From assembly GCF_013315695.1 (NCBI RefSeq), contig NZ_CP054353.1: 64,000 nucleotides of DNA. The stretch is one strand, 5' to 3'. The notes beneath the pieces are model-generated. The model did not search any database. It was not told where the DNA came from and saw nothing but the letters and a program-made list of their open reading frames with translations. The position numbers and the translations under genes are program-made. Positions 1 to 15,061 of this stretch are shown here, piece by piece (position 1 is the stretch's first letter; each line of letters begins with the position of its first letter). The DNA is from Escherichia coli (GTDB lineage Bacteria > Pseudomonadota > Gammaproteobacteria > Enterobacterales > Enterobacteriaceae).

Positions 1-4153
<4,153 letters not shown>

Positions 4154-4155
4154 CA

Positions 4156-4497
4156 ATGCGAATATTTGTCTACGGCAGTTTACGCCACAAACAAGGCAAC
4201 AGTCACTGGATGACCAATGCCCAGTTACTGGGCGATTTCAGTATCGATAACTACCAGTTGTATAGCCTGGGCCACTATCCAGGCGCAGTTCCGGGGAACG
4301 GAACGGTACACGGTGAAGTTTATCGTATTGACAACGCCACGCTGGCCGAACTTGATGCCTTGCGCACCAGGGGCGGTGAATACGCGCGCCAGTTGATTCA
4401 GACGCCGTACGGGAGTGCATGGATGTACGTTTATCAACGACCCGTCGATGGATTAAAGCTAATTGAAAGCGGCGACTGGTTAGACAGGGATAAGTAA
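4156..4497 (+). CDS. ytfP: Gamma-glutamylcyclotransferase-family protein YtfP (113 aa)
   Basis: ORF 2 nt after tamB stop; sequence recognised as YtfP. Confidence 0.9.
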   Translation: MRIFVYGSLRHKQGNSHWMTNAQLLGDFSIDNYQLYSLGHYPGAVPGNGTVHGEVYRIDNATLAELDALRTRGGEYARQLIQTPYGSAWMYVYQRPVDGLKLIESGDWLDRDK

Positions 4498-4505
4498 TAA
4501 TAAAA

Positions 4506-4534
4506 GCACGCCACCTTCGGGTGGCGTTGTTTTA
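4506..4534 (+). terminator. Rho-independent terminator after ytfP
   Basis: Hairpin acgccacc-ttcg-ggtggcgt followed by tgtttta. Confidence 0.7.
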
Positions 4535-4876
4535 TGCGATGTATCTCGCGATTTTTTTTTGTAACTTTTCCATCTTTTGCTTTTCTCTCCGAGCCGCTTT
4601 CCATATCTGCAATCGCATAAAAAACTCTGCTGGCGTTCACAAATGTGCAGGGGTAAAACGGGGGCACGCTTTGAACGGTGAGTATGAGTGAGGTCGGCTA
4701 ACTTCCAGCAAGTGGCTATGAACAGCAAAATGGTGGTCGGGTTTGCTTGTTCTTACCGTTCAAGCCTTGCAACCGCTGAGAATAATGATGGTGGAATAGA
4801 GAGTTTATTTATCGCGGGCATAAAAAAACCCTTACTAACCGAAGCCCGGCGTTCAGGGTTATTGCGCTAGAAGAAC

Positions 4877-5407
4877 TTATTTATTCTTTGCGCGCTCGAA
4901 GGAAGCAACGATTTCAGCTTTAGCGGCTTCTGCGTTTTCCCAACCTTCAACTTTCACCCACTTGCCTTTTTCGAGGTCTTTGTAGTGCTCGAAGAAGTGA
5001 GCGATTTGCGCTTTCAGCAGTTCAGGCAGATCGTTTACGTCTTTAATGTGATCGTATTCTTTGCTCAGCTTGCTGTGCGGAACCGCAACCAGTTTCGCAT
5101 CTTCACCGGCTTCGTCGGTCATTTTCAGAACGCCAACCGGACGGCAACGGATCACAGAACCAGGCTGCAGCGGGTACGGAGTCGGGACCAGTACGTCAAC
5201 CGGGTCACCGTCCAGAGACAGGGTGTGGTTGATGTAACCGTAGTTGCACGGATAGAACATCGCGGTGGACATGAAGCGGTCAACGAACAGTGCGCCGCTC
5301 TCTTTGTCGATTTCGTATTTGATCGGATCTGCGTTAGCCGGGATCTCAATAACAACGTAGATGTCTTCCGGCAGATCTTTACCCGCAGGGACGTTGAGTA
5401 AGCTCAT
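4877..5407 (-). CDS. ppa: Inorganic pyrophosphatase (176 aa)
   Basis: Protein [32 protein letters not shown]... recognised as E. coli Ppa. Confidence 0.97.
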
Positions 5408-5716
5408 GTCTGTTTCCTTTAAAAATATGTGGCAAACAAGTGCCGAGTATTATAGCCAACTCGCGCCGAATGTCTTTGCTTGTTTTCGTCTTCATTTTCC
5501 TTTTTCGCCAGTTTTAAGACGGTATACAGAGCAGGAAAATCCATAACCGTAGCCGCATTTTTCATAGTGAGATGAAAGCGATTACAAACTTGTGATTAAC
5601 GTTTTATTTACTTTTTTGAAGTGTGATGTAACGCAATCCGTTACATAACGAATTGTCTATAGTTTTTTCGCGAACATCTTTTCACCAATAATAATTACCC
5701 CGACGAGGACAACCCT

Positions 5717-6673
5717 ATGTGGAAACGCTTACTTGTAGTCTCTGCAGTCTCGGCAGCCATGTCGTCTATGGCGTTGGCCGCTCCATTAACCGTAGGATTT
5801 TCGCAGGTCGGATCGGAATCCGGCTGGCGCGCCGCAGAAACCAATGTGGCGAAAAGTGAGGCCGAAAAACGCGGAATTACGTTGAAAATTGCCGATGGTC
5901 AGCAAAAGCAGGAAAACCAGATTAAAGCGGTACGTTCCTTCGTTGCACAAGGGGTGGATGCGATCTTTATCGCTCCAGTGGTTGCGACGGGTTGGGAACC
6001 GGTATTAAAAGAGGCGAAAGATGCCGAAATCCCGGTCTTCTTGCTCGACCGTTCCATCGATGTGAAAGACAAATCTCTCTATATGACCACCGTTACTGCC
6101 GACAACATCCTCGAAGGTAAGTTGATCGGTGACTGGCTGGTAAAAGAAGTGAATGGCAAACCATGCAACGTGGTGGAGCTGCAGGGCACCGTTGGGGCCA
6201 GCGTCGCCATTGACCGTAAGAAAGGCTTTGCCGAAGCCATTAAGAATGCGCCAAATATCAAAATTATCCGCTCGCAGTCAGGTGACTTCACCCGCAGTAA
6301 AGGCAAAGAAGTCATGGAGAGCTTTATCAAAGCGGAAAACAACGGCAAAAACATCTGCATGGTTTACGCCCATAACGACGACATGGTGATTGGTGCAATT
6401 CAGGCAATTAAAGAAGCGGGCCTGAAACCGGGCAAAGATATCCTCACGGGTTCCATTGACGGTGTACCGGACATCTACAAAGCGATGATGGATGGCGAAG
6501 CGAACGCCAGTGTTGAACTGACGCCGAACATGGCGGGACCCGCTTTCGATGCGCTGGAGAAATACAAAAAAGACGGCACCATGCCTGAAAAGCTGACGTT
6601 AACCAAATCCACCCTTTACCTGCCTGATACCGCAAAAGAAGAGTTAGAGAAGAAGAAAAATATGGGGTATTGA
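5717..6673 (+). CDS. ytfQ: Galactofuranose ABC transporter periplasmic binding protein (318 aa)
   Basis: Signal peptide plus sugar-binding-protein fold ORF; first gene of ytfQRT-yjfF cluster. Confidence 0.92.
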   Translation: MWKRLLVVSAVSAAMSSMALAAPLTVGFSQVGSESGWRAAETNVAKSEAEKRGITLKIADGQQKQENQIKAVRSFVAQGVDAIFIAPVVATGWEPVLKEAKDAEIPVFLLDRSIDVKDKSLYMTTVTADNILEGKLIGDWLVKEVNGKPCNVVELQGTVGASVAIDRKKGFAEAIKNAPNIKIIRSQSGDFTRSKGKEVMESFIKAENNGKNICMVYAHNDDMVIGAIQAIKEAGLKPGKDILTGSIDGVPDIYKAMMDGEANASVELTPNMAGPAFDALEKYKKDGTMPEKLTLTKSTLYLPDTAKEELEKKKNMGY

Positions 6674-13063: not shown

Positions 13064-13615
13064 TTACCCTTCGTTTTCCGCTAATTCGCGCAAATACTGG
13101 AAAATCTGGCGTGCGGATTTCGGCGGCTTATTCCCTTCTTTCTCTTTCTTCGCATTGCGGATCAGAGTACGCAGCTGCTGACGATCGGCATCGGGCCACA
13201 GATTCAATACTTCAGCGATAGCGTCATCTCCCTGGTCGATCAGACGATCGCGCAGGTTTTCCAGTTTATGGAACAGCACCACCTGCTGGTTATGACGGTT
13301 TTTCAGCTTATCCAGCGCCTGACGGATCGGTTCTACATCGCGCTGGCGCAGCATCTTACCGATGAGCTGCAACTGGCGGCGGCGACCTTCCATCTTAATA
13401 CGCTGGGCGAGCTCAATAGCCGCGCGCAGATCCGCATCTAACGGGATCTTATCCAGCGCGTTTTTCCCCAGATCAACAATTTCCGCGCCAAGGCGTTTTA
13501 GCTCCTCGGCATCACGTTTAATTTCACTTTTACTGACCCAGATAATTTCATCGTCTTCGTCTTCGATGTCATCACCGGGAACGTCGTCGAGCCAGTCTTC
13601 GGGCTGCTTAGTCAT
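13064..13615 (-). CDS. yjgA: Ribosome-associated protein YjgA (DUF615, 183 aa)
   Basis: Acidic N-terminus and conserved YjgA sequence; synteny. Confidence 0.9.
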
Positions 13616-13720: not shown

Positions 13721-15061
13721 ATGAAAGTAATCTCTCAAGTTGAAGCGCAGCGCAAGATTCTGGAAGAAGCAGTTTCCACTGCGCTGGAGTTGGCCTCAGG
13801 CAAATCGGACGGTGCGGAAGTTGCCGTCAGCAAGACCACCGGCATTAGCGTAAGCACGCGTTATGGTGAAGTGGAGAATGTTGAATTCAATAGCGATGGC
13901 GCGCTGGGGATCACTGTTTATCACCAGAACCGCAAAGGTAGCGCATCATCCACCGATTTAAGCCCGCAGGCCATTGCCCGTACTGTACAGGCGGCGCTGG
14001 ATATTGCCCGTTATACCTCGCCAGATCCCTGTGCCGGCGTGGCAGACAAAGAGCTGCTGGCCTTTGACGCACCAGATCTCGACTTGTTCCACCCTGCGGA
14101 AGTTTCCCCGGATGAAGCCATTGAACTGGCGGCCCGCGCAGAACAGGCGGCATTGCAGGCGGACAAACGCATCACCAATACCGAAGGTGGCAGCTTTAAC
14201 AGCCACTACGGTGTCAAAGTTTTTGGCAACAGCCACGGCATGTTGCAGGGTTACTGCTCAACGCGTCATTCGCTCTCCAGCTGTGTAATTGCCGAAGAAA
14301 ATGGCGATATGGAGCGTGATTACGCCTACACCATTGGCCGCGCGATGAGCGATCTGCAAACGCCAGAGTGGGTCGGGGCCGACTGTGCTCGCCGTACTTT
14401 ATCGCGCCTGTCACCGCGTAAACTCTCCACCATGAAAGCGCCGGTCATTTTTGCCAATGAAGTGGCAACCGGGCTTTTTGGCCATCTGGTGGGGGCGATA
14501 GCGGGTGGCTCGGTTTACCGTAAATCTACCTTTCTGCTGGATTCGCTGGGTAAACAAATTCTGCCGGACTGGCTGACCATTGAAGAGCATCCGCATCTGC
14601 TGAAAGGGCTGGCGTCGACGCCATTCGACAGCGAAGGTGTGCGCACCGAGCGTCGCGATATTATTAAAGATGGCATCCTGACTCAGTGGCTGCTGACCAG
14701 CTACTCGGCGCGGAAACTGGGGCTGAAAAGCACCGGACATGCGGGCGGTATTCACAACTGGCGGATTGCCGGACAAGGGCTAAGCTTCGAACAAATGCTC
14801 AAAGAGATGGGCACCGGGCTGGTGGTGACGGAGCTGATGGGCCAGGGCGTGAGTGCCATTACCGGTGATTATTCCCGTGGTGCAGCGGGCTTCTGGGTAG
14901 AGAATGGCGAAATTCAGTATCCCGTTAGTGAAATCACCATCGCAGGTAATTTAAAAGATATGTGGCGCAATATTGTCACCGTCGGTAACGATATTGAAAC
15001 ACGCAGTAATATACAGTGTGGTTCTGTGCTGTTGCCGGAGATGAAAATCGCCGGGCAGTAA
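13721..15061 (+). CDS. pmbA: Metalloprotease PmbA (TldE), 446 aa
   Basis: Sequence recognised; start taken at [12 protein letters not shown] (ORF track begins 4 codons upstream). Confidence 0.92.

Follow-up and report, generated by a model that had tools for sequence, protein, structure and literature searches.

A probable decay scar of chpS-chpB between ytfP and ppa in Escherichia coli

The ytfP-ppa interval and its features

The window, meaning the whole 64-kb stretch of Escherichia coli DNA that was analyzed, carries ytfP and ppa as convergent neighbors, ytfP on the plus strand and ppa on the minus strand. The interval between them, as delimited by the open reading frames (ORFs) of the window, spans positions 4498-4876 and is exactly 379 bp long. 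In K-12 MG1655 the corresponding interval, 886 bp long, contains chpS (b4224) and chpB (b4225), the toxin-antitoxin (TA) pair ChpS-ChpB (ChpBI-ChpBK) of the MazEF/PemIK family. The original prediction had assigned this pair to the interval in K-12, had placed a gap of ~380 bp at these positions, and had seen no credible chpS-chpB ORF pair in it; all of this was confirmed. It had also held that the gap contains only the ytfP terminator. That terminator is indeed present, but it shares the interval with a second hairpin, a ppa terminator, ~120 bp of leader sequence, and a 125-bp fragment of chpB (Table 1).

Table 1. Features in and around the ytfP-ppa interval (positions in the window)
Feature	Positions	Strand	Basis and remarks
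tamB	374-4153	+	ORF
ytfP (gamma-glutamylcyclotransferase family)	4156-4497	+	Upstream border; ORF; 100% identical to K-12 ytfP; annotated ytfP in strain KL53
ytfP intrinsic terminator	4508-4534	both strands score	GC-rich hairpin ACGCCACCTTCGGGTGGCGT then T tract; terminator scan
Second small hairpin, then T9 run	4535-4559	+	Terminator scan and fold
Putative upstream leader remnant of chpSB cassette, non-coding	~4540-4660	+	Homology; ends at 5' deletion junction ...GGGGTAAAACG
Junction filler (GGGGCACGC), homology uncertain	4661-4669	+	Stands where K-12 has about 312 bp
chpB pseudogene fragment, codons 7-48 of 116	4670-4794	+	blastn, tblastn, local alignment
GGTGGAATAG, final chpB codons and stop	4789-4798	+	Joined to codon 48 via TGGTGG microhomology
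ppa terminator	about 4821-4860	-	AACCCT...AGGGTT stem then U7; visible in sequence
ppa (inorganic pyrophosphatase)	4877-5407	-	Downstream border; ORF
ytfQ	5717-6673	+	ORF

Over its first 25 kb, the window matches several complete genomes at 100% identity (EcPF7, HH107, and KL53) and UMNK88 at 99.4%. In the RefSeq annotation of KL53 (L002), the locus tags pass from CPT07_RS22715 to RS22725 across ytfP and ppa and skip RS22720, which suggests that a feature was formerly called between the two genes and later dropped from the annotation.

The ytfP terminator folds at -24.5 kcal/mol (z -4.7), and its core is kept in nearly all of 80 Enterobacteriaceae loci. The terminator-like repeat GCCACCTTCGGGTGGC occurs once in the window, at 4510; two copies flank the gene esiB in strain GN02323. 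On the opposite side of the gap, the fold of the ppa terminator is not significant against shuffles, and the element is 82-92% conserved in the compact ytfP-ppa sites of Citrobacter, Salmonella, and Raoultella. A scan for consensus matches found no promoter-like site in the gap. An Rfam scan of 4100-5800 (E<=1) likewise gave no match there, its sole match being a chance S15-leader inside ppa.

Remnants of chpB and its leader

What is left of the K-12 arrangement? When the K-12 interval is compared to the gap by blastn, three blocks align: an upstream flank (window 4462-4660, 86% identity), a middle block that corresponds to chpB, and a downstream flank (window 4789-4914, 94.5% identity). The 125 bp of the middle block match K-12 chpB nucleotides 19-145 at 92 of 127 positions (72%; blastn E=2e-14). 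When the K-12-specific cassette is aligned locally to window 4661-4788, the score is 48; none of 1000 dinucleotide shuffles reach that score (10.1 +/- 1.4, maximum 17), and the reverse strand yields 13 in the same alignment. The homology to chpB is significant, and the position, strand, and orientation are those expected of an ortholog. It was resolved by blastn, tblastn, and local alignment rather than by a global MAFFT alignment of the gap to K-12, which set the relic against chpS and masked its homology to chpB. A global pairwise alignment with cheap gap extension gave fragmentary output and was discarded.

At the protein level, a tblastn search of the entire window matches ChpB amino acids 15-42 to positions 4693-4776 (50% identity, E=0.002). 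This is technically the kind of hit that the original prediction had named as evidence against itself. The match, however, is a stop-riddled, frameshifted, doubly truncated fragment, so the genes are not restored by it. Read in the chpB frame, the fragment contains three stops (TGA, TGA, and TAA) and two 1-nt deletions. Its 35 differences from K-12 chpB are spread 12/11/12 over codon positions 1, 2, and 3 (chi-square p=0.97), and the changed codons comprise 18 non-synonymous or stop changes versus 4 synonymous ones. Because stops, frameshifts, and an even spread over codon positions together form the signature of a long-dead pseudogene, the fragment is probably one that has been drifting neutrally, not a diverged functional allele.

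The antitoxin gene has left even less behind. Alignment to K-12 has chpS entirely deleted, and no tblastn match of K-12 ChpS goes below E=0.95 in the gap or E=2.4 in the whole window. The four longest ORFs of the gap and the conceptual translation of the relic have no Pfam match, while K-12 ChpB, used as a control, matches PF02452 (PemK_toxin) at 1.1e-25. An intact upstream antitoxin gene, an intact PF02452 toxin ORF of ~116 amino acids, and a promoter with a palindromic operator are the parts of a functional module, and none of them is found in the gap; of the toxin ORF, 42 of 116 codons remain, with the 3 stops and 2 frameshifts just described. Set beside ChpS-ChpB of K-12, the stretch at 4670-4798 is homologous to chpB in orthologous position and orientation, but the window lacks chpS, the promoter, and the operator, and the PemK_toxin profile fails on it; it is a remnant of that family rather than a member. 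The strain is predicted to lack both the endoribonuclease ChpB and its antitoxin ChpS.

The boundaries of the relic are defined by two junctions. At the 5' junction, the window departs from both K-12 and the O111:H2 strain 12A right after GGGGTAAAACG (4660). The ~312 bp of K-12 sequence missing at the filler comprise the chpS promoter with its operator palindrome, chpS itself, and the first 18 nt of chpB. Among the segments absent from the window is GTTTCCTGTAGCACCGTGAGTTATACTTTGTATAACTTAAGGAGG, which lies just upstream of chpS in K-12 and whose palindrome marks it as the putative chpS operator. The hexamer GGTAAA is found on both sides of the 5' junction, one occurrence being at the start of chpB; this microhomology is short and may be a coincidence. 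The exact junction is ambiguous within 4661-4669. At the 3' junction, the window sequence GATGGTGGAATAG passes from codon 48 (..CTGGTGG) straight into the end of the gene, its final codons and stop (..GGTGGTGGAATAA), with ~195-200 bp of chpB missing in between. K-12 chpB has TGGTGG at nt 140 and again at nt 341, so the 3' loss looks like a microhomology-mediated internal deletion.

Upstream of the 5' junction lies the leader. It aligns to ~1280-1398 of the K-12 locus (L001) at 86-92% identity and has homologs at the chpSB loci of Lelliottia (66%), Enterobacter asburiae (67%), and Pseudocitrobacter (63%), as well as at a small chpB relic in Citrobacter sedlakii (72%). No homolog occurs in the compact, 93- to 160-bp ytfP-ppa sites among the 80 species representatives of the Enterobacteriaceae. 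This distribution argues that the segment belongs to the chpSB cassette. Since its homologs are found only at loci with chpSB or a small chpB relic, ~260 of the 379 bp in the gap would be cassette derived, which would make the site a scar rather than an empty site.

In strain 12A, the upstream flank is 100% identical to the window up to 4660 (12A locus L003 3001-3215 versus window 4498-4660) and then runs directly into the chpS promoter and chpSB; the K-12 flank, by comparison, is 86% identical to the window. A chpSB-positive strain thus shares its upstream flank with the window, and not with K-12, which indicates two deep leader haplotypes that appear to have been shuffled relative to chpSB presence by recombination within the locus.

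Alleles of the site in E. coli and other Enterobacteriaceae

How common is the scar? Among 5426 complete E. coli genomes, chpSB is present in 3098 (57.1%; at least 80% coverage, 95-100% identity), and the 379-bp scar gap is found in 2320 (42.8%) at a coverage of at least 80%, 1994 of these at an identity of at least 99%. The two classes together account for 5418 genomes. At megablast sensitivity, genomes without chpSB at ytfP-ppa have no copy of it elsewhere. The esiB gene is present in 188 genomes (3.5%), all of them within the scar class, leaving scar only in about 39%. In these strains, two ytfP-terminator repeats flank esiB, and the leader and chpB relic already described follow downstream of it; the esiB allele would therefore have arisen on a scar background. 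In GN02323 (L006), the repeats that bracket esiB lie at 13343-13372 and 14998-15030 and read GCCACCTTCGGGTGGC and GCCACCTGCGGGTGGC. The window itself has no tblastn match to EsiB and carries neither esiB nor chpBS, with a single copy of the repeat.

A few rare alleles also occur at the locus. In H85 (strain HH45), all that remains of chpB is a stretch of ~101 bp, 100% identical, to which the annotation gives the name PemK/MazF family toxin. In H60 (GDSC2227PM), H29 (SCU-301), and H30 (N50), matches to the ytfP-ppa query are split or partial.

The presence/absence polymorphism as such is ordinary and has been published. The relevant passage of Pastorello et al. (2013, mBio, PMC3735183) describes three states of the locus in E. 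coli, namely, esiB (as in CFT073), ChpBS (as in MG1655), and neither, with esiB bracketed by direct repeats, of which a single copy is present at loci without the gene. The window falls at the same locus, with the same flanking genes, in the "neither" class (Fig. 1C of that paper) and has the single terminator-like repeat. The frequencies in that passage, from 47 genomes, are 53% chpBS, 15% esiB, and 32% neither, versus 57.1%, 3.5%, and about 39% (scar only) in the 5426 genomes examined here. In the same passage the genes are simply absent from the "neither" class. Here, in contrast, the "neither" and "esiB" alleles both carry the leader and the chpB fragment, and because they share these, both probably derive from an occupied site. 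What is added to the published polymorphism is that the "absent" allele appears to be an ancient scar of chpSB decay, shared with Escherichia albertii. No explicit description of the chpB remnant was found in the accessible literature, though an earlier one is possible.

Beyond E. coli, the ytfP neighborhoods of 80 species-representative Enterobacteriaceae genomes were compared, and their ytfP-ppa intervals range from 93 bp to >3.8 kb. Compact sites of 93-160 bp are found in many Citrobacter, Klebsiella, Enterobacter, and Kluyvera genomes, and these share with the window only the ytfP terminator (4508-4533) and, in some, the ppa terminator (~4813-4860). Intact chpSB in synteny is found in Escherichia whittamii, two further Escherichia species, and E. 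coli E69 (ChpB 91-97% identical in amino acids). More distant syntenic orthologs occur in Lelliottia, Enterobacter asburiae, Kluyvera genomosp. 1, Pseudocitrobacter, and strain RIT691, with 64-78% amino acid identity for ChpB and 63-75% for ChpS.

Fragments have turned up in other genera as well. The ytfP-ppa interval of C. sedlakii, 341 bp in length, keeps part of the leader together with a fragment of ChpB amino acids 63-76 (L031 4430-4471; 71% identity, E=2e-4). In Enterobacter cloacae DSM 26481, a fragment of ChpS amino acids 9-31 lies beside ppa (L037 6100-6168; 65% identity, E=2e-5). Their boundaries differ, and the two small relics look like independent events, which suggests that chpSB decay has been recurrent at this site.

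The interval is also a cargo hotspot across the Enterobacteriaceae, its contents including chpSB, esiB, a TonB-dependent receptor, an Hcp-domain protein, and a chemoreceptor. In Citrobacter portucalensis, for instance, the TonB-dependent receptor is accompanied by a beta-propeller protein, and in Enterobacter soli the cargo is a methyl-accepting chemotaxis protein. Salmonella enterica subsp. arizonae carries a 403-amino-acid protein whose N-terminal type VI secretion system (T6SS) Hcp domain is extended by a long C-terminal region. Behind it comes a 93-amino-acid ORF that has no Pfam match; possibly, the two form an Hcp-toxin and immunity pair. Example coordinates for such cargo (in L009-L088, where the interval starts from ~4343) are L022 4403-7567, L021 4734-6227, and L049 4393-5973.

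Origin of the scar and competing explanations

Taken together, the gap is best read as the decayed remnant of a chpS-chpB cassette, a type II TA system of the MazEF/PemIK family, that once stood at this site (probability of roughly 0.9). The site would have been occupied and then lost its cassette, and what lies between the genes today would be more than a bare terminator. Two deletions would account for most of the loss. (i) A 5' deletion would have taken chpS in its entirety, together with its autoregulated promoter and operator and codons 1-6 of chpB. (ii) A 3' deletion between the TGGTGG repeats would have removed chpB codons ~49-114. The leader (about 4540-4660), the 125-bp fragment, and the terminal codons would be the leftovers, the fragment having drifted neutrally ever since. 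The homology, the lesions, the junctions, the frequency among genomes, and the occurrence of the scar in E. albertii were observed; the order of events, the microhomology-mediated mechanism of deletion, and a scar without transcription are the parts that we infer.

How old is the scar? Six alleles were compared: those of the window, FDAARGOS_1287, FDAARGOS_144, GN02323 (the esiB strain), SCPM-O-B-8794 (a cryptic-clade genome labeled E. coli; L012), and E. albertii NBRC 107761 (L014). At both junctions all six agree, and they have the first 1-nt deletion and the TGA and TAA stops in common. Such agreement among divergent alleles implies that the scar probably had a single origin. Between E. albertii and the window, identity is 87.7% in the relic and 90% in the neighboring tamB and ytfQ. 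Because relic and flanks have diverged to a similar degree, the E. albertii scar was probably inherited vertically, at species depth, and not recently imported. The relic is 70-74% identical to Escherichia chpB and 47-60% identical to chpB of other genera. Its distance from chpB, about 27%, is about twice the distance between the E. coli and E. albertii relics (about 12%), and a simple, recent loss from the current allele fails to explain this. The distances suggest either a very old pseudogene that has persisted alongside intact copies or descent from an older, more divergent cassette, alternatives that the 127 nt of the relic, on which estimates of distance and date are noisy, cannot separate.

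Both states of the locus may have outlived the splitting of species. The scar is found in E. albertii, a cryptic clade, and 43% of E. coli; E. whittamii, other cryptic clades, and 57% of E. coli genomes have chpSB intact; and about 27% divergence separates the scar from each of the intact copies. One tentative proposal, and a rather less than even bet, is that intact and decayed chpSB form an ancient trans-species polymorphism in Escherichia, kept by balancing selection or by continual recombination between lineages. Phage defense set against the cost of the toxin may be an example of such balancing selection.

The second of the two alternatives, in which the relic traces back to an earlier, divergent version of the cassette and modern chpSB was brought back later by horizontal transfer, with homologous recombination in the ytfP and ppa flanks, is the least improbable of the competing explanations, though still unlikely. 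It would account for the gap between the ~27% distance of relic to chpB and the ~12% distance between relics. Intact chpB is also strikingly uniform, with 97-98% identity between Escherichia species in the stretch covered by the relic (tamB, about 91%) and 95-100% identity of modern chpSB across the 3098 genomes, and the flank haplotypes are mosaic, as in 12A with its window-like flank and chpSB. However, purifying selection on intact chpB would be enough to account for the high identity between species. Moreover, the relic is nearest to Escherichia chpB rather than to that of any other genus sampled, its differences lack the third-position excess of a gene that diverged while functional and resemble drift after inactivation, and the sample is just 127 nt.

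Could the relic instead have been retained for a new function? The long hairpin into which window 4660-4800 folds has an energy of -49.1 kcal/mol (z -3.05), a stability that none of 200 shuffles match, and the scar persists in E. albertii as well as in 43% of E. coli. A structured RNA of this sort might act as a transcription barrier or a small RNA between ytfP and ppa. But the same hairpin is already present inside the intact chpB of K-12 (L001 1700-1840; -51 kcal/mol, z -2.2) and is hence inherited. In the E. albertii relic, the fold is no better than shuffles (z 0.08) and two stem pairs are broken; compensatory covariation in the main stem is absent among the relic alleles; and the hairpin is not conserved in the chpB of other genera. 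Nor does the gap offer an Rfam match or a promoter-like site. The hairpin, which pairs chpB codons ~7-17 with codons ~30-40, is therefore treated as a probably inherited and incidental fold; the structured-RNA reading was rejected, its chances being slim.

Two further explanations fare worse still. An ancestral, never-occupied site, into which chpSB was inserted in K-12-like strains, would suit the view that TA systems are usually horizontally acquired accessory genes (as stated in a passage of PMC7167474) and the many Enterobacteriaceae without chpSB at this site, but a chpB fragment and the cassette leader sit in the gap, and truly empty sites elsewhere are 93-160 bp with two terminators only; the homology of the relic to chpB refutes this explanation, and it is highly improbable. 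An assembly or sequencing artifact that collapsed the interval is excluded, with a probability next to nil, by the recurrence of the 379-bp interval in so many complete genomes and by the 100% match of the surrounding 25 kb to several independent ones.

The decayed-cassette reading places the locus among other chromosomal TA systems in the process of being lost. Strains of E. coli reportedly differ in the state of the chromosomal ccdO157 system, the subject of work by Mine et al. in Genetics in 2009: in some it is intact, and in others deletions and nonsense mutations have degraded it. Like ccdO157, chpSB is a chromosomal type II TA system that occupies a fixed intergenic position and is intact or degraded depending on the strain. 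Unlike ccdO157, which is a CcdAB system at another locus with many independent lesions, it is MazEF-like and has a single old scar that is shared with E. albertii. More generally, chromosomal TA loci of E. coli occupy conserved locations, with decay by deletion and nonsense mutation under way in some, according to a passage in PMC7167474 (citing Fiedoruk 2015 and Mine 2009).

The overall significance of the scar is small. It adds one more well-resolved case of a chromosomal type II TA system at a fixed intergenic hotspot that has decayed by deletion and then drift, and it illustrates that a very old scar can pass for an "empty" allele, which is useful to bear in mind when TA gain is being distinguished from TA loss. 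In practical terms, strains of this kind are to be annotated as chpSB negative with a chpB pseudogene remnant, and PCR or gene-presence surveys of "chpBIK" rightly score them as negative.
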